Origin: Candidatus Acidiferrales bacterium
Lineage (GTDB): Bacteria > Patescibacteriota > Microgenomatia > Levybacterales > UBA12049
NCBI GenBank assembly: GCA_035533875.1
Contig: DATLSZ010000033.1
Location: forward strand, 1 to 58,519
Direction: 5' to 3'
Length of the DNA: 58,519 nucleotides
The notes beneath the pieces are model-generated. The model had not been told where the DNA came from. It worked only from the letters and a program-made list of their open reading frames with translations, and did no database searches. Every line of letters starts with the position of its first letter. The first letter of the stretch is position 1. Shown here piece after piece: positions 28,967 through 36,676 of this stretch. Both the position numbers and the translations under genes were made by a program.

Positions 28967-29037
28967 AGGGGTATCGGTTAACGGTAAACCAGCGGTCTCC
29001 AAAACCGCGACTGGGGGTTCGATTCCCTCTACCCCTG
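28967..29037 (+). tRNA. trnW: tRNA-Trp(CCA)
   Basis: Acceptor AGGGGTA/TACCCCT; anticodon arm GCGGT-CTCCAAA-ACCGC; canonical TTCGA T-loop. Confidence 0.96.
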
Positions 29038-29058
29038 CTGCACAGACTCGAACCTTTT

Positions 29059-29916
29059 TTATTTTATAAAGTATTGGAGAATTTCAAGAAGTCCATTTTC
29101 ATCTACGGAACCCTTACTTACAAAATATTTTCCTTCACCTTTTGATTTTATATTTTCTTTTAATTCCTCCGTTCCATTTGAAAGGGTTGCACCGTAACCG
29201 CATAACTGGATAAAATTCCAATCACTCGTGCTGTCACCGATACCCAAAACATCATCGAAAGAAATTCCTAGACTTTTAACGATCGCTTCTGCTCCTTCTT
29301 TTTTCGAACTTTCGGGCGCTGTAATGATGCCAAATTGCAGCGGCAACGCGACCGGATGCACTCCCCAACTGATTGATGCTTTTGCGTTAAACTTCTCCAA
29401 AACATCTGAAATCCGCTTTTTATCCTCGTTATCAGCCCCAATTGGCATGATCTTCGTAATCTCGTAATCGCCACTTTCTTCAACAATATCGGTAAGCAAA
29501 ACCGGATCTCGCTGGAGAATGTGTGTATGCTTTATTGTTGTTTCTGATACACTATCTTTTTGAATAAAGTAATCTTCTACTGTGTAGAACTCCACATAAA
29601 CATCTGCCTCCCGCAATGTGTGTAAAATTTCTTTGACCAAGCCTTTATCAAGCACATGTTTCTCAACGATGATCTTATCGATCGGATCAATAATTACGGC
29701 TCCTGCATCTGCAATATGCGGGTTATGCAAATTCGGCTGATTTATTTCTTCTGCTATCGAATAGTGAGGCTTCGCAGTACAAAGACAGACGGCAATTCCT
29801 TTTTCTCTGACCTTTTTTAAGGCCACGACTACATCTGGATGTGGATGAGGAGAATTGTATCCGATCTTTTCACCTATAATAACGCCGTCGACATCAAGAA
29901 TTATTGCTTTTATCAT
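29059..29916 (-). CDS. Cof-type HAD-IIB hydrolase
   Basis: AIILDVDG, CTAK and GIGDSTSD motifs. Confidence 0.85.
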   Translation of the reverse strand: MIKAIILDVDGVIIGEKIGYNSPHPHPDVVVALKKVREKGIAVCLCTAKPHYSIAEEINQPNLHNPHIADAGAVIIDPIDKIIVEKHVLDKGLVKEILHTLREADVYVEFYTVEDYFIQKDSVSETTIKHTHILQRDPVLLTDIVEESGDYEITKIMPIGADNEDKKRISDVLEKFNAKASISWGVHPVALPLQFGIITAPESSKKEGAEAIVKSLGISFDDVLGIGDSTSDWNFIQLCGYGATLSNGTEELKENIKSKGEGKYFVSKGSVDENGLLEILQYFIK

Positions 29917-29951
29917 TACATGAGTATTTTATCAAAGATCAGGCAAAAGAT

Positions 29952-30030
29952 GGAATATAAAACTCACCATTTCGTGCGTAAAAAGTTCTAACGTTGTACC
30001 CAAGCCTCTGCAGATAACTTTTTTCTTCAA
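29952..30030 (+). repeat. att-like repeat R1
   Basis: GGAATATAAAACTCACCATTTCGTGCGTAAAAAGTTCTAACG...GCCTCTGCAGA; 61/70 nt identical to R2. Confidence 0.9.
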
Positions 30031-30072
30031 ACTAAAAAATACGCCAGCAAACACATATCAGTATAAGAAGAT

Positions 30073-30432
30073 TTATTTGAAAAACAGCATTTTAATTGCA
30101 ATCAGTAAAACCGAAAAGCCGAAAATTCTCTCCAGCCATAATGAAGATAAGTTAGTAGCAAACTTAGCACCCAACCATCCTCCGACCAGAAAACCAATAG
30201 CTAAAAACAAAGCTATCTTAATATCAACATACCCTTGCTTATAATAAGCTAATACGGCAAGTAAGCCCACAGGTGGTAAAAGAAGAGCTAGTGTAGTTCC
30301 CTGCGCAACTTTTTGAGTGAGACCGAAAAGATAAATTAGAGCCGGTACAATAATAATGCCTCCACCGATTCCTACTAACCCACTAGCTACACCTGCAAGT
30401 AATCCTAAAAGTAAAATGCCAACGATAACCAT
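30073..30432 (-). CDS. TauE/SafE (TSUP) half-size membrane protein
   Basis: GLVGIGGG..IVP and AQGTTL motifs; 119 aa. Confidence 0.85.
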   Translation of the reverse strand: MVIVGILLLGLLAGVASGLVGIGGGIIIVPALIYLFGLTQKVAQGTTLALLLPPVGLLAVLAYYKQGYVDIKIALFLAIGFLVGGWLGAKFATNLSSLWLERIFGFSVLLIAIKMLFFK

Positions 30433-30483
30433 AGTATGTATACTTTACCTGAAACAGAAGATACTGTATAATTATCGTCGGAT

Positions 30484-31305
30484 ATGTCCGATAAATTAGA
30501 TAAAATTCAGCATAGATTAGCAGAAAAACTTAGTGCTTTTGGACTAAGTGATGTTGAAGCAAAAATTTATCTTCATTTACTCAATAAAGAGCCGAAAACA
30601 ACAACTGAGATTGCAAAAGAGCTTGAGCTTCCGCGAACATCCGTCTATGATAATTCACAAAAATTGCTAACAAAAGGTCTTGTTACGAGTGTTAAAAAAT
30701 ATAAAAGTCAGAAGTTGCAAGCTTTGTCTATCGATATATTGCAGACAATTATCACAAAAGAAAAAGAGAATATTGAACGTTTGGAAGAGAACTTCATTCA
30801 GTTAAAAGAAAACATCCAGCTTTCTTTTAACCCTTCATACAATACAGAAATCAAGTATTATCATGGCAAGCAAGGACTTATGCAAATGATGTGGAATACC
30901 CTTTCAGCTAAAGATGAAATTGTCCGGTATCCTGAATACGGCAGAATTGAAGTTGTAGGGAAAAAATTTTTCTTATCATGGGCTCATGAAATAATTGAAA
31001 AAAAGATTATTGAGAAAGCACTTATTAACCCAAAACCTGAATCACTTCGTCATTTTTTAGAAACAGATCAACATGCTTTAAGAATGGTCTATCAATATAC
31101 CCGAACATTGCCCGAGGATACGTTATATGTCTCTGGAGACACAACGATTTATAATAATACCTTTGCAGTTAGTTATTGGAAACAAGGAGAAATAGTAGGT
31201 GTGGAGATAGAGAATCCCGAACTGGTAAAAACACAAAAATCTATTTTTGAAACATTATGGAAAATCTCAAAACCCGTCGATTATTCCAATTTTGGAACAA
31301 ATTGA
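30484..31305 (+). CDS. TrmB-like transcriptional regulator
   Basis: GLS..EAKIYL.LL, IAKEL.LPRTSVY...KLL.KGLV HTH; C-terminal PLD-like effector (IYNNTFA...). Confidence 0.85.
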   Translation: MSDKLDKIQHRLAEKLSAFGLSDVEAKIYLHLLNKEPKTTTEIAKELELPRTSVYDNSQKLLTKGLVTSVKKYKSQKLQALSIDILQTIITKEKENIERLEENFIQLKENIQLSFNPSYNTEIKYYHGKQGLMQMMWNTLSAKDEIVRYPEYGRIEVVGKKFFLSWAHEIIEKKIIEKALINPKPESLRHFLETDQHALRMVYQYTRTLPEDTLYVSGDTTIYNNTFAVSYWKQGEIVGVEIENPELVKTQKSIFETLWKISKPVDYSNFGTN

Positions 31306-31320
31306 GAAAATAAAAAATTT

Positions 31321-31400
31321 GGAATATAAAACTTACCATTTTGTGCGTAAAAGGTTCTAACGTCGTACACGAGCCCCTGCTGATGACTTTTTAGCTTCAA
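31321..31400 (+). repeat. att-like repeat R2
   Basis: GGAATATAAAACTTACCATTTTGTGCGTAAAAGGTTCTAACGTCGTACACGAGCCCCTGCTGATGACTTTTTAGCTTCAA. Confidence 0.9.
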
Positions 31401-31461
31401 TTTGTGCCTAAAAAATCCCCTATCCACAACTATACGTTAGCACCTCTGGTATAATTCTCTT

Positions 31462-32226
31462 ATGAAACTCATGTCCTACAATATCCTTGATGGCGGAGTT
31501 GATCGCCTCCCTCTCATTATTGATGCTATTAAAAAAGAAGCTCCTGATTATCTCACCATAAACGAAGCAAATACGTTTGCGCAAGATGATAATAAGATTT
31601 TGAAAGAATTGACTCAACAGATTGATCTTCCCTATTTCGATGTTGCTTTATCAGAGGAATATGATTACCATGTTGCCGCTTTTTCTAAATATCCTTTTAA
31701 GCATACCACCAAACCCCACCCGTTGACGAGAGCTTGCCTAATAACGCTCATTGATACAGACTTGGGAGAGCTTTCGGTCGCCAGTCTACATCTTACTCCT
31801 TATGCAGAAGATCTACGACACCCAGAAATAGACTTAATTATCAAAGCCCAAAAACAATATGAAAACCGAATTTTAATGGGAGATATGAATTCTCTTTCAC
31901 AAAGTGACAACTATGATTCGCAAATAATACAACAGTTTACTGTGGCTCAGCTTAAAAAATTTACAACCGACACACAAATACGTTTTGATGCGATAAATAA
32001 AATACTCTCAGTTGGTTATTATGACGTTGCAAAGGAACTGGAGAAAAATAAAGAAAATACTGTTCCTACACCTACTAGTAAAGATACTTCTCATTCTCAG
32101 ATGAGATTGGATTACATATTTATTTCTGACTCACTTCTTCCTCATCTGAAAGATTATTCAGTAGTAAAAAATAAAATAACTGATAAAGCATCAGATCACT
32201 ATCCAATCATCGCAGAATTGAAGTAA
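31462..32226 (+). CDS. Endonuclease/exonuclease/phosphatase (EEP) family protein
   Basis: MSYNI, INE, LHL, MGDMNS, RLDYIF and SDHYP motifs. Confidence 0.9.
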   Translation: MKLMSYNILDGGVDRLPLIIDAIKKEAPDYLTINEANTFAQDDNKILKELTQQIDLPYFDVALSEEYDYHVAAFSKYPFKHTTKPHPLTRACLITLIDTDLGELSVASLHLTPYAEDLRHPEIDLIIKAQKQYENRILMGDMNSLSQSDNYDSQIIQQFTVAQLKKFTTDTQIRFDAINKILSVGYYDVAKELEKNKENTVPTPTSKDTSHSQMRLDYIFISDSLLPHLKDYSVVKNKITDKASDHYPIIAELK

Positions 32227-32234
32227 TAGATCCC

Positions 32235-32277
32235 ATTCGCTACGACTTATCCCCTGCTGACAATTTTTAGCTTTGAA
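32235..32277 (+). repeat. att-like repeat R3
   Basis: TTCGCTACGACTTATCCCCTGCTGACAATTTTTAGCTTTGAA. Confidence 0.75.
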
Positions 32278-32344
32278 TACCCTACTCTACGTGATTCGTA
32301 TCATTGTAAAATTATTCTTATTGAATTACCATTGGTATACATTT

Positions 32345-32866
32345 ATGCAATATAAATTGCTCAGGCAGAGTCATCTAATACTCGTAGCACGCTTAATAGG
32401 GTTGGATATAATAATAACCATTCTTTATCTTTTTTTCAGAATTTCCATTACTGTCCTTCAGTTGTTACAGGTAAGTACTGCGGGTTTTTATGGAGTCAGC
32501 ATCATCGATATTGTTTATTTTATCATTATAACTGTTGCTGAATTAACTTTAGGCACCTGGATTGTGCTTTCATGGGCTAATGAAGAATGGGAAATTAAAG
32601 AAGGGGTAATCTTTCATCGAAGAGGAATTTTTCATATGAAAGAAGATGCTTACTCTCTCAAACAGATTGGTTCAACGACATTAAATCAAGGTTTATTAGG
32701 TAAATTATTTAATTATGGCACCATTAAGATCTTTAGCCCCCTTTTAAAACAAGATTATTATCTGATGAATATTCATAATCCAAGAGAGATTGCCAAAACA
32801 CTTGAAGATGAGGTTGCTGGTACAAACCAAAAACATGGAACAAATATTTTCTTTAAAAAAAGCTGA
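32345..32866 (+). CDS. Bacterial PH-domain membrane protein
   Basis: Two TM segments, then RRGIF...QGLLGKLFNYGTIKI...NIHNP. Confidence 0.75.
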   Translation: MQYKLLRQSHLILVARLIGLDIIITILYLFFRISITVLQLLQVSTAGFYGVSIIDIVYFIIITVAELTLGTWIVLSWANEEWEIKEGVIFHRRGIFHMKEDAYSLKQIGSTTLNQGLLGKLFNYGTIKIFSPLLKQDYYLMNIHNPREIAKTLEDEVAGTNQKHGTNIFFKKS

Positions 32867-32933
32867 TTATCAAAATATATTAACCCTCTACTGTGCATCA
32901 GAATTTCTGTTATAATTTATTTGGGAGGTCATC

Positions 32934-33323
32934 ATGAAATCTCAACACCTTATCACTTGGATTAGCTTAGCAGGAATAATAGGAGCACTCTTTGGTATCT
33001 TTTATGCATTCTTCGGACTTAATGGCCTACCGGTGTATCAAAAATTAGTACCTGCTACTGTCTATACATCTTGGAGCAACGGACTTTACGGAGCTGTTTT
33101 TATCGGTTTTAGTGTGTTGCTTTTCTTAATCGGCAGACATGCATTCAAGAATAAGGATAAATTTCTTATGAAAGCACTTCTTTATGGATTGGCATCTTGG
33201 TTGATTGTTGAAGCATCCTTTTCTTTCTATTATGGTATTTATTTCAATATAGGTGTCGACGTATTTCTCATGATTTTCATAGGCTTCCCACTCGTAGTTG
33301 GCATACGTTCAAAAAAAACCTAA
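32934..33323 (+). CDS. Hypothetical membrane protein
   Basis: 129-aa ORF with about 4 TM segments and a GGAGG SD. Confidence 0.75.
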   Translation: MKSQHLITWISLAGIIGALFGIFYAFFGLNGLPVYQKLVPATVYTSWSNGLYGAVFIGFSVLLFLIGRHAFKNKDKFLMKALLYGLASWLIVEASFSFYYGIYFNIGVDVFLMIFIGFPLVVGIRSKKT

Positions 33324-33390
33324 CTATAGTGGAACTTCTTGAAAGAAGAAATAGGTTCCTACAAAGTTGTCCTTCGATACTTCAGGACCC

Positions 33391-33428
33391 TCGACTTAGC
33401 CCCTGCAGATATTTTAACTGGATTCGAA
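33391..33428 (+). repeat. att-like repeat R4
   Basis: TCGACTTAGCCCCTGCAGATATTTTAAC; shares CGACTTA-CCCCTGC-GA with R3. Confidence 0.65.
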
Positions 33429-33481
33429 TTTTCTAGTAGAATAGGTGCTATGACGAAACGAGATCAAAATATATCTGAAGT

Positions 33482-34450
33482 CTACATTAAAGAAGTAAGG
33501 TGGTCCAGTACTTCCTGATAATCACACATTGCAAGACATATTCCTTGGTCGCCTGATCCGTAGTATACATAAAGGTTTTCTCCAAATACCACAGCTCCTT
33601 CCGGGAAAGCAACATGATTTACCACCCCGTGCCTTTCACGTTCTGTTTCAGGTCTGAGAACATGGTCAACATTTGCCAGGATCTTTCGTGGGTCATGCAG
33701 ATCAAGAAGCGCTGCGCTGATTGACCACTCTGTATGGTCATTGACCGTACTGAGCGCGCTATAAATAAAAAGCCATCCATGAGGCGTCTTGATAGGCACC
33801 GCTCCTACTTCATTTCCCCTGCCATCACTTGGCCGGAATACTACTTGATCCTCATATTCTTCATTCACGATCCGGTTCATTTTTTCTTGTGAGGGATAAA
33901 ACAAGTCATAAAGATCATCAAATTGAGCCATCATAATGGTCGCTTTTGGACTTTCCAGCTCAAAGGTAAAGAGCATTGTGTATTTCCCATTAATCTTTTC
34001 AGGAAAAAGGCATGCTGCTTTTGAAAAAAGATCCGGTCCTACTATTCCGTGTTTGTTCCAGTGAATAAAATCCTTACTGGTGGCCAAAGCAATTCTCACC
34101 TTTTGTTCATGTCCCGAGCCTCCCACAGCTGTATAATAGCAGTAATATACTCCATCAATTTTGGTTATCCGGGGATCTTCACATCCCATACCGTTCTCAT
34201 AACTTTCTGTAGGGGCAATAAGGGGTTCTTCAAATCTTTCAAAATGCATACCATCAACACTTTCCGCATATCCGAGAGACGATATATATGCGCCTTCCTG
34301 GTCAGGATGGACGTCATTGGTTGCTCGATACATCATTCGAAAAAATCCATTTTCATAAATTACCCCAGGATTCAGAACAGATCCTCTTTCCCAATCATGG
34401 TTGGGATTCAATTCAAGAATTGGATCCCCCCGAAAACGTTTTAGTTTCAT
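33482..34450 (-). CDS. GH130-like glycosidase/phosphorylase (5-bladed beta-propeller)
   Basis: NPIL, LNPGV, M.YRA, GCEDPRIT, K.A.LFPEKINGKY, FPEGAV and YVYYG motifs. Confidence 0.85.
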   Translation of the reverse strand: MKLKRFRGDPILELNPNHDWERGSVLNPGVIYENGFFRMMYRATNDVHPDQEGAYISSLGYAESVDGMHFERFEEPLIAPTESYENGMGCEDPRITKIDGVYYCYYTAVGGSGHEQKVRIALATSKDFIHWNKHGIVGPDLFSKAACLFPEKINGKYTMLFTFELESPKATIMMAQFDDLYDLFYPSQEKMNRIVNEEYEDQVVFRPSDGRGNEVGAVPIKTPHGWLFIYSALSTVNDHTEWSISAALLDLHDPRKILANVDHVLRPETERERHGVVNHVAFPEGAVVFGENLYVYYGSGDQGICLAMCDYQEVLDHLTSLM

Positions 34451-34586
34451 ATAATTATTGTAACACTATCACTAATTTAATTGTCAAGTAAATAAAGTAC
34501 CACTTGATTCCTTATTCCTCTGAGAAAGAATATATATAGTGATCTTAATCACACTTTTTCTTATGATAAAATTGTATCATGAACAT

Positions 34587-35108
34587 ATGAAGAAAAGTCG
34601 TTTTTTTATTATTATTTTCACAATACTTCTTATTGGTGCAGCCAGCATTGCATTTATCCTCTATAACAGGGTGCAAGCTCAACAAAAAATCCATTATCAT
34701 GCTGGTTTTGTGGTGTTTAAGAACAATACAAAGCTTAGTTTTTCCGATAAGAAATACATGTATACGAAACCTTGCACGCTTAATGGAAAAGAAGATACGA
34801 CAAATGAAAATGACCAACTGGAAAAAGCACATTTGCACGATAATGTCGGGGATGTCGTCCATATTGAAAGAAGTGGTGCAGTTTGGCAAGATTTATTCAC
34901 AAACATTAAATTCCCTCTTGATTACAGCAAAACTGAAGGATTTATCAACGGACAAAAAGTAACAAACTATCAAACACAACCGATCAAACCAGATGATAGT
35001 CTTGTTGTTTTTATGGGAAATAATGATATTACAAAAGACTTAAAACAAGCTCCTACAAAAGATTACATGGAGCGAATGGCAAAGAAAAGTGGTACTTGTA
35101 GTGACTGA
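34587..35108 (+). CDS. Membrane-anchored hypothetical protein with His motifs
   Basis: N-terminal TM; HYH, HLHD and VVH motifs; start 34587 is 6 nt after TATCAT. Confidence 0.7.
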   Translation: MKKSRFFIIIFTILLIGAASIAFILYNRVQAQQKIHYHAGFVVFKNNTKLSFSDKKYMYTKPCTLNGKEDTTNENDQLEKAHLHDNVGDVVHIERSGAVWQDLFTNIKFPLDYSKTEGFINGQKVTNYQTQPIKPDDSLVVFMGNNDITKDLKQAPTKDYMERMAKKSGTCSD

Positions 35109-35121
35109 TTACCTATAAATT

Positions 35122-35199
35122 GGAATATAAAATCAGCATTTTGTGCGTAATAAGTTCTAACGTCATACACGAGCCCCTTCATTAAAACTTAGTTTCAAA
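35122..35199 (+). repeat. att-like repeat R5
   Basis: GGAATATAAAATCAGCATTTTGTGCGTAATAAGTTCTAACGTCATACACGAGCCCCTTC, clearly homologous to R1 and R2. Confidence 0.88.
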
Positions 35200-35254
35200 T
35201 AACTATATCAAACTATACTACCCTGAGCCGATTCGAACTTTAACCTCAGAAATC

Positions 35255-35284
35255 TTGACAATAGCACTTCCCTCGTGAGATAAT
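35255..35284 (+). promoter_or_regulatory. Sigma70 promoter
   Basis: TTGACA-N18-GATAAT just upstream of the riboswitch. Confidence 0.6.
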
Positions 35285-35292
35285 TTACCTAC

Positions 35293-35340
35293 AAGCGATG
35301 AAGTTCGCTTCTAAATGCCTCAAAAGCTAATGACTTCTAC
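35293..35340 (+). promoter_or_regulatory. Fluoride (crcB) riboswitch
   Basis: AAGCGATGAAGTTCGCTT-CTAAATGC...GCTAATGACTTCTAC matches the crcB motif GATG..GTTC.CC...GCT.ATGAC..CTAC. Confidence 0.82.
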
Positions 35341-35362
35341 CATACGTGGTAGGAGTTTTTTT
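35333..35362 (+). terminator. Riboswitch terminator overlapping the aptamer 3' end
   Basis: ACTTCTACCA-TACG-TGGTAGGAGT followed by a T-tract. Confidence 0.78.
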
Positions 35363-35384
35363 ATTTTTAACTCCCATCTATTTT

Positions 35385-36536
35385 ATGTCAATTTTCTTAG
35401 TTGCGACTATTTTTTTTGGTTTAGTTTTCTTTGCCAGTCTCATCTCAATTGAGTACGGAATTGCGGCGGCAATATCGGAAATTTTCTTTGGTGTTATTGC
35501 TGGGAATTTTCTTCATGTACCAACACATCTTGCTGTTCTTTCATTCCTTGCCTCTTTTGGCAGTATTTATCTTACCTTTCAAGCTGGAACAGAAGTTGAT
35601 GTTAAGCTATTCAAAAAGCATTGGATGGAGGCGTTTCTCATTGGTGGAGGTTCTTTTGTTGTTCCTTTTATCGCAGAATTTTTAGCTGCTTACTATTGGC
35701 TTCACTGGACGTTCGGTGCATCGGAGATCGCTGCTCTTGCTCTTTCAACAACATCACTTGCGGTAGTATACTCGGTTCTTGTCGAAACTGGACTGTCATC
35801 AACCAATTTTGGTAAGAGATTAATGGCTGCAACCTTTGTAGAAGATGCTTTAACGGCTGTATTCTTAACGCTTCTTTTCCTTCATGTGAATTGGTATACG
35901 TTTTTCTTCATCATTGCATCAATCGTTATTTTGATCGGGTTGCCAAAATTATATCCGATGATTGTGAAGAAATTTGGTAACAAAGTGGTTGAGCCAGAGT
36001 TGAAATTTTTATTCTTTTGTCTTTTTATTCTGTTGTGGCTTGGAAGTGCAGGTAATAATCAGCCGGGACTTCCAGTATTTTTCTTGGGTCTTTTGCTTTC
36101 GCCTTTCCTAACAAAAAATGAAGCATTACGAAAAAAGATGAGAACCATTGCCTTTGCAATGATAACACCCTTCTTTTTCTTTCAAGGTGGACTGAATGTT
36201 GATTTACGTTTTGTCTTAGCAGGCTTAGGAGTTTTTATCGCACTTCTTCTTATAAAGCTTATAACGAAATTTATCGGTGTCTGGCCATTTGCCAAAAAGT
36301 ATCATGGAGCAAATAGCATGTTTACCACACTGCTTATGAGTACCGGGCTTACCTTTGGAACGATTTCTTCATTGTATGGATTAAATAATCATATTATTTC
36401 TGTCCAACAATTCTCCCTTTTGATTACTGCCGTTATTATATCTGCTATTCTTCCTACTATTGTTGCTTTGAAATTCTATCCACCGAAAACAGAAAAATTA
36501 AAAGATATTATTACAACTGAAGGCGCAGAGGGATAA
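35385..36536 (+). CDS. Cation:proton antiporter (CPA2-like)
   Basis: About 12 TM segments; LTFQAGTEVD, STTS.AVV, AATFVED and FFF..GL.VD motifs. Confidence 0.85.
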   Translation: MSIFLVATIFFGLVFFASLISIEYGIAAAISEIFFGVIAGNFLHVPTHLAVLSFLASFGSIYLTFQAGTEVDVKLFKKHWMEAFLIGGGSFVVPFIAEFLAAYYWLHWTFGASEIAALALSTTSLAVVYSVLVETGLSSTNFGKRLMAATFVEDALTAVFLTLLFLHVNWYTFFFIIASIVILIGLPKLYPMIVKKFGNKVVEPELKFLFFCLFILLWLGSAGNNQPGLPVFFLGLLLSPFLTKNEALRKKMRTIAFAMITPFFFFQGGLNVDLRFVLAGLGVFIALLLIKLITKFIGVWPFAKKYHGANSMFTTLLMSTGLTFGTISSLYGLNNHIISVQQFSLLITAVIISAILPTIVALKFYPPKTEKLKDIITTEGAEG

Positions 36537-36574
36537 TGATAACTAATTATAAATTATAAAAATACGTCCATCCA

Positions 36575-36610
36575 ATTCACTCTGCCCCTGCTGATCACTT
36601 TTATATTCAA
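36575..36610 (+). repeat. att-like repeat R6
   Basis: TTCACTCTGCCCCTGCTGATCACTTTTATATTCAA. Confidence 0.7.
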
Positions 36611-36676
36611 ATTCTCTTTTTCTTAACCTCGACGGCGGAAGGACTCTAACCTTATATCTGATGCTATAATGATAAA

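Follow-up and report, generated by a model that had tools for sequence, protein, structure and literature searches.

Repeats downstream of a tRNA-Trp gene in a Microgenomates-like genome are probable junction scars of large serine recombinase elements

The window analysed here is a stretch of 58,519 nucleotides (contig DATLSZ010000033.1 of assembly GCA_035533875.1) from a small genome of the candidate phyla radiation (CPR) type, 1.28 Mb in 39 contigs and 75% complete, whose relatives among the collection matches are Roizmanbacteria/Microgenomates-like metagenome-assembled genomes. It carries a cluster of tRNA genes (Thr, Tyr, Thr), rpmG and tRNA-Trp, and then a run of unrelated accessory genes interspersed with short repeats, which we call R1 to R6. 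Our results suggest, with a probability of roughly 80%, that R1, R2 and R5 are junction scars of integrative elements which targeted the 3' end of tRNA-Trp and whose large serine recombinase (LSR) gene contained the attachment site of the element (attP). Thus, the window reads as a set of scars and not as a complete element or a working system.

R1 (29945-30023), R2 (31314-31392) and R5 (35114-35192) form a 79-nt direct-repeat family. On the minus strand, R1 reads ...SYLQRLGYNVRTFYARNGEFYIPSFA and R2 reads ...KSHQQGLVYDVRTFYAQNGKFYIPNFLFSQFVPKLE, each followed by a stop, and R5 reads ...MKGLVYDVRTYYAQNADF before it goes out of frame, with FYIP found in another frame, that is, with a 1-nt frameshift. 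These strings, the R5 frameshift and the reading QQG-stop through the tRNA had been given in a preliminary description of the same DNA, and minus-strand translation reproduced them exactly. R3 (~32251) and R6 (~36585) are shorter copies, with only CCCCTGCTGA..ACTTTTTA..TTCAAA in common. The repeats are not due to chance, as their counts were far above those expected: in the window, the 24-nt core pattern gave three matches against 0.00 expected, and the pattern of core plus right arm gave four against 0.13. In the whole genome, nhmmer detected only R1, R2, R5 and one diverged copy on contig C29.

All the junctions are organised around a core, CCCCTGCTG, which consists of the last 6 nt of tRNA-Trp (CCCCTG, its left part) and the next 3 nt. 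This core is found at the tRNA and in R2 (31374-31382), R3 and R6, and is degenerate in R1 (CCTCTGCAG, 30005-30013) and R5 (CCCCTTCAT, 35174-35182). R2 has lost its native stop and its frame stays open to 31281. The antisense frame through the tRNA flank reads ...KRFESVQQG, a stop, and RESNPQ. The features are collected in Table 1.

Table 1. Features of the tRNA-Trp locus and its repeat array (window coordinates)
Feature	Position	Strand	Source
tRNA-Trp(CCA), putative integration target	28967..29037	+	ARAGORN; Rfam tRNA, 60.2 bits
Core CCCCTGCTG followed by flank CACAGACTCGAACC at tRNA-Trp	29032..29055	+	Antisense reading KRFESVQQG-stop
Cargo between junctions	29059..36536		Pfam, Rfam
R1 orphan tail LQRLGYNVRTFYARNGEFYIPSFA with stop codon	29939..30013	-	Repeat search, translation, nhmmer
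R1 right arm (ATAACTTTTTTCTTCAAACTA..), ~27 nt common to other junctions	30014..30040	+	Arm alignment
R2 orphan tail QQGLVYDVRTFYAQNGKFYIPNFL, best-preserved copy	31311..31382	-	Repeat search, translation, nhmmer
R2 right arm (ATGACTTTTTAGCTTCAATTTG..), homologous to the widespread TTTTAGCCTCGAA arm	31383..31410	+	Arm alignment
R3: core CCCCTGCTG and common right arm; left arm weakly like a tRNA 3' end, not a tail	32230..32283	+	Alignment, by-eye T-arm comparison
R5 orphan tail KGLVYDVRTYYAQNADF, 1-nt frameshift before FYIP	35120..35182	-	Translation, motif offset 8 not 9, nhmmer
R6: core CCCCTGCTG and common right arm	36565..36617	+	Alignment

The cargo consists of a HAD hydrolase, a truncated TauE fragment with a TrmB regulator, an EEP nuclease/phosphatase, a bPH protein, ORF129, GH130, ORF189, and a fluoride riboswitch with a Na+/H+ exchanger. 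Pfam searches detected no recombinase among these genes and no LSR with Resolvase, Recombinase and Zn-ribbon domains in the array. The segment from tRNA-Trp to ~44.3 kb is hypervariable among members of the genus, and the upstream side is syntenic. In the genome of the window, PF07508 matched only on contigs C4 and C17, and an LSR of the tRNA-Trp type was not found in the 75% that is covered.

The candidate enzymes were found in the relatives (numbered G001, G002 and so on). LSRs are common in the related genomes, and many end in residues encoded antisense to a tRNA (..RDSNP.., ..GGIEPPT..). In the same genus, LSR genes run antisense into the 3' end of tRNA-Trp, and the tRNA-derived residues follow ...WQG or ...LQG. 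LSR-A of G002 (502 aa) combines Resolvase, Recombinase and Zn-ribbon domains. Its overlap with tRNA-Trp is 54 nt long, and it ends ...EYKENENWQG:CTDSNREKQFWRLL and a stop (here and below, a colon marks the junction). Beyond the LSR-A element, three junctions of G002 carry a shorter variant, QG:LSN(Y/S)V(G/R)T... In G001, the intact LSR-B (540 aa, with the same three domains) abuts tRNA-Trp and ends ...MMYIYAQNSSLQG (...YAQNSSLQG), its stop being the TAG of the tRNA antisense strand.

The far end of the G001 element, 10.6 kb off, links these enzymes to the repeats of the window. There, an ORF of 80 aa reads ...APALFKSSKPALQRELLRFVVSNLYLKDKKFDFELKMPFNIVAQYSESENWQG:LVEDVRTFYAQNGDFYIPAFT and a stop. 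Up to WQG it matches the C-terminus of LSR-A homologues (P0003), and the tail comes after WQG; by its sequence, the part before the colon is a remnant of an older LSR-A. The element would then have inserted between tRNA-Trp and the older LSR-A, with tRNA and LSR-B joined at the putative attL and with the tail of LSR-B itself, the core and the LSR-A remnant at the putative attR. Since CAG GGG (QG) lies in the same frame at both junctions, tRNA/LSR-B and far end, the excised circle would encode ...SSLQG-LVEDVRTFYAQNGDFYIPAFT and a stop; at the predicted circle (attP) junction, LSR-B ...SSLQG would be joined directly to LVEDVRTFYAQN... The genes in the interior of the element include XRE/ImmA-like pairs and one for an MBL-fold protein, the kind of content that a mobile element would have.

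A second intact element, of 11 kb, is present in G216, which belongs to a different genus. Its LSR ends ...KDNVQG:WRESNPQ... at tRNA-Trp, and its far end reads ...ILQG:LVDFVRTHF... up to a stop, a diverged tail in the same layout as in G001. The two ends of each element share the core with the target (CAGGGG at both G001 junctions; the G216 junctions are 11 kb apart). The preliminary description had proposed that the recombinase gene spans attP and that integration swaps its C-terminal tail; the LSRs antisense at tRNA-Trp, the G001 far-end tail in the CAG GGG frame and the G216 layout all speak for this proposal.

Note that two distinct tRNA-Trp alleles exist in one genus (G000, G001 and G036 versus G002, G004 and G008), differing in the anticodon stem, the variable region and the T-arm. 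An LSR reading into tRNA-Trp meets an immediate stop (TAG) with one allele and 14 more codons with the other.

Both LSRs of the window's own genome (G000) also overlap tRNA 3' ends, tRNA-Ser(GCT) on C4 and tRNA-Ile on C17, and C29 carries a matching orphan tail, ..LWRR:IVDDVQTFYAQFPQKYYIPNFA and a stop (tail peptide RRIVDDVQTFYAQFPQKYYIPNFA). Joining C4 and C29 as one tRNA-Ser element was considered and dropped: the two contigs are suitably oriented, but their ends share no overlap. Separately, in C29 of G000, three tandem copies of the tRNA-Ser 5' end (AAAAATCAAGGAGAGGTCG..) immediately precede the gene itself (1100-1360, locus L088). ARAGORN gives this tRNA-Ser the unusual anticodon ACT, and the orphan LSR tail lies ~200 nt upstream (1002-1076).

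The tail is widespread. Approximately 50 distinct copies of QGLVxDVRTFYAQNxxFYIPxF(A/T)-stop were collected from related CPR genomes and metagenomes; they occur in 14 of 61 related genomes and in 13 of the 245 genomes of the order, usually two to four per genome and a few kb apart. Where the contig permits, the distance from tRNA-Trp to the motif downstream of it is 4-8 kb, and the peptide is encoded antisense to the tRNA (G008, G036, G004). More copies were obtained from GTDB contigs and from 27 metagenome contigs using a degenerate DNA pattern for (D)VRTFYAQN, in which the third codon positions were left free. In every copy the open frame upstream of the motif is short, 3 to 94 codons. Some cassettes recur in other contexts: HAD with the tail in G004, G011 and G016, and the R6 junction with the following 186-aa gene in G002.

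A profile built from 21 copies was used to search 1.84 billion protein cluster representatives, and matched only predicted proteins of 44-136 aa with the tail at the extreme C-terminus. In support of the proposed origin, three of these proteins (P0006, P0010 and P0014) have different LSR C-terminal ends fused in frame to the tail, as does the 80-aa ORF of G001. P0010 reads ..FEPEEK..AQNYTLQG:DVNDVRTFYAQ.. and P0014 reads ..FAFLHPEVRG:NCNDVRTFYAQN..; P0006, the best match, is a decayed remnant on a 607-bp contig. The suggestion in the preliminary description that CPR recombinases of the serine family end in similar tails is not supported, as no full-length protein among these representatives has the tail at its end. 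In IMG/VR, the tail pattern gave only one chance match, inside a 588-aa frame.

How the copies vary indicates what is being conserved. In the FYIPxF block, which lay outside every search pattern, the entropy by codon position was 0.41/0.57/1.31 across 25 distinct copies from other genomes, and I, P and the last F/L varied only at the third position. Of the 21 copies with the YIP motif (YATNCC), 19 have it at a distance of 9, 12 or 15 nt from the preceding AAT codon; only the frameshifted R5 and an off-frame match taken as chance depart from this. In most copies the stop comes two or three codons after IP, and the similarity ends there. This third-position variation, the frame-keeping indels and the conserved position of the stop argue that, family-wide, the tail is under constraint at the protein level.

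From these observations, we propose the following origin for the scars. The LSR gene would run antisense to the tRNA, cross the core in the frame CAG-CAG-GGG (QQG or WQG) and continue for ~22 codons, LVxDVRTFYAQNxxFYIPxF(A/T), to its stop, with CAGCAGGGG as the candidate crossover stretch. Integration would separate the LSR body from the tail, which would stay at the far end of the element, and the integrated body would end in antisense-tRNA residues or, with the window's tRNA allele, at the immediate TAG. Successive elements would have inserted at tRNA-Trp, each leaving its new tail, the core and the 3' arm of the previous occupant, a form of junction seen directly in G001. Later deletion of the LSR genes and some of the cargo would have reduced these to small cargo islets in tandem, each bounded by a tail, the core and ~27 nt of the 3' arm of an older element. 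What the data show directly are the sequences, their frames, the paired junctions in the relatives and, family-wide, the protein-level constraint on the tail; we infer the order of these events, and likewise that a tail-bearing isoform is made from the excised circle. The copies in the window appear to be decaying and not maintained, given their lack of codon bias, the mutated cores of R1 and R5 and the frameshift of R5.

Several observations weigh against this origin. No intact LSR reading into the tail was detected in the 61 related genomes, in the 245 genomes of the order (frames of up to 94 aa), in 56 collection hits or among the 1.84 billion protein representatives, nor by pattern search in the GTDB or metagenome contigs; because of this, the tail-bearing isoform is reconstructed and not observed. 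The common right arm often contains an in-frame TAA four or five codons before QG, and so most junctions cannot be read through. Contrary to the preliminary description, conservative or synonymous changes do not predominate within the window: R1 and R2 differ by two synonymous and eight non-synonymous codons (5/5/3 over the codon positions), and R1, R2 and R5 show no codon bias. Moreover, the stretch GAC GTT AGA ACT TTT TAC GCA CAA AAT is nearly invariant, third positions included. We read this as a second constraint, so that the conservation of VRTFYAQN would be partly at the DNA level; lying within ~40 nt of the core, the stretch probably also serves in the left arm of attP. The D-V-R-T codons, first taken for a degenerate antisense T-loop, are better read in the same way, as the resemblance to the T-loop is limited to GGTTC.

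The arms and the tRNA flank also fit poorly. The T-arm and flank of tRNA-Trp form a 39-bp inverted arrangement, GGTTCGA...TCGAACC (seven contiguous complementary positions in a dyad scan), which looks like an unoccupied symmetric site and not like an occupied attL; similar ..TCGAACC flanks are present in G012, G008 and G028. The left arms of R3 and R6 are tRNA-like and not tail-like. R6 matches the tRNA-Trp 3' end at ~19 of 27 positions (counted by eye), by which count it would be an attL-like scar. Simple tandem accretion would explain neither the symmetric flank nor these left arms; the arms may be tRNA ends that a different kind of insertion displaced. The uniform cutting of the right arms to ~27 nt is likewise left unexplained by accretion and decay.

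Independently of this, contig C77 of G036 has an inverted copy of the tRNA-Trp 3' end (TAGAGGGAATCGAACCC) ~40 nt downstream of the tRNA (~2068-2140), giving 19-nt inverted repeats around the common right arm.

Because of the uniform right arms, the left arms of R3 and R6 and the flank palindrome, we keep as a minority view, unlikely in our judgement, that the junctions are still active. According to this view, LSR-less cassettes bearing a tail, the core and the 27-nt arm would be captured and shuffled at tRNA-Trp by an LSR acting in trans, in a system resembling integrons or cis-mobilizable elements (CIMEs). Arms of ~27 nt are found throughout R1-R6 and in many metagenome copies, where random deletion remnants would vary, and the HAD cassette (window, G004, G011, G016) and the 186-aa gene after R6 (G002) sit in different array contexts; in addition, LSR-less islands at a serine-integrase hotspot have been proposed to be cis-mobilizable in Dehalococcoides (PMC3146451). 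However, two of the cores are mutated, the 75% complete genome yielded no LSR of the required type, and the longer LSR remnants (26-90 aa) at the same kind of junction are what progressive decay would leave.

Less probable still is that the repeat is a DNA recombination site and nothing else, namely the attP left half-site and its surroundings, in which the frame and the peptide would be incidental and never translated. The almost invariant nine codons with their free third positions, the orphaned state of every copy and the lack of codon bias among R1, R2 and R5 are all as this reading would have them. But conservation of the left arm extends ~66 nt outward from the core (that of the right arm, consensus TTTTAGCCTCGAA in tRNA orientation, only ~27 nt), which goes beyond an attachment half-site of this kind. 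In phage LSRs the half-site is ~20-25 bp long, and the whole sites are imperfect dyads of ~50 bp (attP) and ~40 bp (attB) with one central dinucleotide. Nor would a site that is never translated restrict I, P and F of the FYIPxF block to third-position changes, keep IP in frame across spacers differing by 3 or 6 nt, or hold the stop codon in place with the similarity ending there. The codon-position bias across the ~25 copies and the in-frame fusions of LSR remnants to the tail, both of which go against the refuting outcome named in the preliminary description, argue instead for an LSR gene running through its own attP. R2-type sites contain a weaker dyad, CTAA..TCGT/ACGA..TTAG, whose centre is ~2.5 nt from that of the tRNA-flank dyad. 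An LSR-like attP/attB geometry, with the outer motif shifted by 4-5 bp, is suggestive by eye, but the dyad centres disagree and we do not rely on it.

Finally, an independent small protein or a structured RNA is so improbable as to be effectively refuted: gene callers did predict proteins of 44-136 aa ending in the tail, but the copies have no start codon in common, the open stretch before the motif ranges from 3 to 65 codons and is unrelated in sequence between copies, the repeats had no Rfam match, and RNAalifold found zero conserved pairs in 16 copies.

If the LSR gene does span its attP, the swap of tails could act as a built-in isoform switch. Only enzyme produced from the excised circle would carry the ~22-residue tail, and with the window's tRNA allele the integrated enzyme would stop right after QG, so that recombination itself would change the activity or the directionality of the integrase. 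The peptide is an orphan in all the genomes sampled, and the constraint on its codons would then mean that the circle-form tail matters. We regard this switch as a tentative and rather doubtful possibility. As an extension, the data are compatible with compact sites of tail, core and 27-nt arm through which cassettes without an LSR could still undergo mobilisation in trans at tRNA genes. In the BPs/Brujita type of phage, an integration-dependent switch is said to work through a C-terminal ssrA-like degron. We considered a similar role for the tail and rejected it, since the tag frame of the transfer-messenger RNA (tmRNA) ends ...RAYATLAA and the tail ends ...FYIPSFA, with no resemblance. As a separate observation, this tmRNA (G000, C29, 11668-12102, minus strand) was found by Rfam (121.5 bits) and missed by ARAGORN, and one of its frames gives an unusually long candidate tag ending ...SAFAPQRAYATLAA before the stop.

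Among known systems, one of the two closest parallels is provided by the ssrA-specific islands of Dehalococcoides and their serine integrase DsiB (McMurdie et al. 2011, PMC3146451). There, a CcrB-like LSR lies next to attL, and its 3' end always overlaps either the att repeat or the RNA gene that is targeted; several islands follow one another in tandem downstream of one small-RNA gene; and many of them have no integration module and were suggested to be cis-mobilizable through accretion (PMC3146451). In contrast, the Dehalococcoides target is the tmRNA gene, with a crossover in the T-loop and a 20-bp repeat, and the overlapping tail was judged divergent and non-functional (PMC3146451); here the target would be the last bases of a tRNA, and the attP-side tail is conserved, with apparent codon-level constraint across genera. 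The host also differs, being CPR/Microgenomates, as does the size of the islets, 1-3 kb.

The other is the tyrosine integrase of myxophage Mx8 (IntP/IntX), for which a gene that spans its own attP is established: attP lies inside the coding sequence, integration makes the gene a recombinant whose 3' end is new, and the enzyme so altered remains active with changed properties (PMC6070905). The integrase gene of SSV spans attP likewise (Islander paper, PMC4383910). The elements described here would be a serine-recombinase variant of this arrangement. A frame of the Mx8 type runs across the crossover, as seen in the common QG frame at attL and attR of G001, the in-frame fusions of LSR remnants to the tail and the codon-position bias of the tail. 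Work on Mx8 IntP/IntX was reportedly published by Tojo (1996) and Magrini (1999). Unlike the phage tyrosine recombinase of Mx8, the enzymes at the present junctions are serine recombinases (PF00239), with no tyrosine recombinase catalytic domain, and belong to small integrative elements.

These enzymes resemble the LSRs of phages and of integrative and conjugative elements (ICEs), such as phiC31, Bxb1, A118/LI, TP901-1 and SPbeta SprA, in combining Resolvase, Recombinase and zinc-ribbon domains and in using short, simple att sites with a small core. To our knowledge, the int gene of those systems does not contain attP and integration takes place in protein genes or at intergenic sites, whereas here attP would be inside the LSR gene and the target a tRNA. 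The array also resembles the CIMEs and accretion arrays of the ICESt1/ICESt3 type, with att-flanked islets that lack a recombinase and are stacked at one hotspot, but that concept comes from ICEs with tyrosine integrases, and the mobility of the present islets is putative. The cassettes of the window occur in both orientations with their own signals. In contrast to integrons, no imperfect attC hairpins were found at the cassette ends (RNAalifold, the same 16 copies), and no integrase of any kind was found among the ORFs annotated around the array, although no dedicated IntI search was made. Our literature search found no description of this design in CPR bacteria or of this tail; its coverage was incomplete and it is not proof of absence.

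If these elements are as we propose, the region downstream of tRNA-Trp in these ultra-small bacteria would be a stack of serine-integrase islets, which would explain its hypervariability, and the peptide-like repeats could be used as markers of island boundaries in CPR genomes. It would also add tRNA genes to the targets of serine integrases, which were not known to use them in the 2015 Islander survey (PMC4383910). The family-wide point of interest is a conserved enzyme tail that, as reconstructed, exists only in the excised state. Should the tail affect activity, it would give a serine integrase a self-contained way to sense integration, and this would bear on the control of directionality and on the use of these enzymes in genome engineering.

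Some minor features of the cargo deserve mention. The R1 tail lies ~20 nt upstream of the start of the HAD gene. In the window (29916-29945) and in G004, G011 and G016, TTGATAAAATACTCATGTAATG and the start codon of HAD come within ~20 nt after the stop codon of the tail; a HAD -10-like box and start are joined to an R1-type junction, and the pairing is conserved across genera. An ORF of 119 aa adjoining the R1 junction (30073-30432, minus strand) matches the TauE/SafE sulfite-exporter family only at its C-terminal half (profile positions 129-237 of 237) and is apparently a truncated gene. The fluoride riboswitch (crcB motif, 35285-35346) scored 44.1 bits, with a gathering score of 34. It immediately precedes the Na+/H+ exchanger-family gene (35346-36536), and both form a self-contained cassette between R5 and R6. 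Finally, three loci on GTDB contigs (L063, L076 and L078), labelled Patescibacteria, uncultured bacterium and Azotimanducaceae, encode in short open frames a separate conserved family, LRTFEAVRTFYAQND(I/V)(N/K)V(M/V)LP(D/N)LQ, which may be a related tail family in other lineages.

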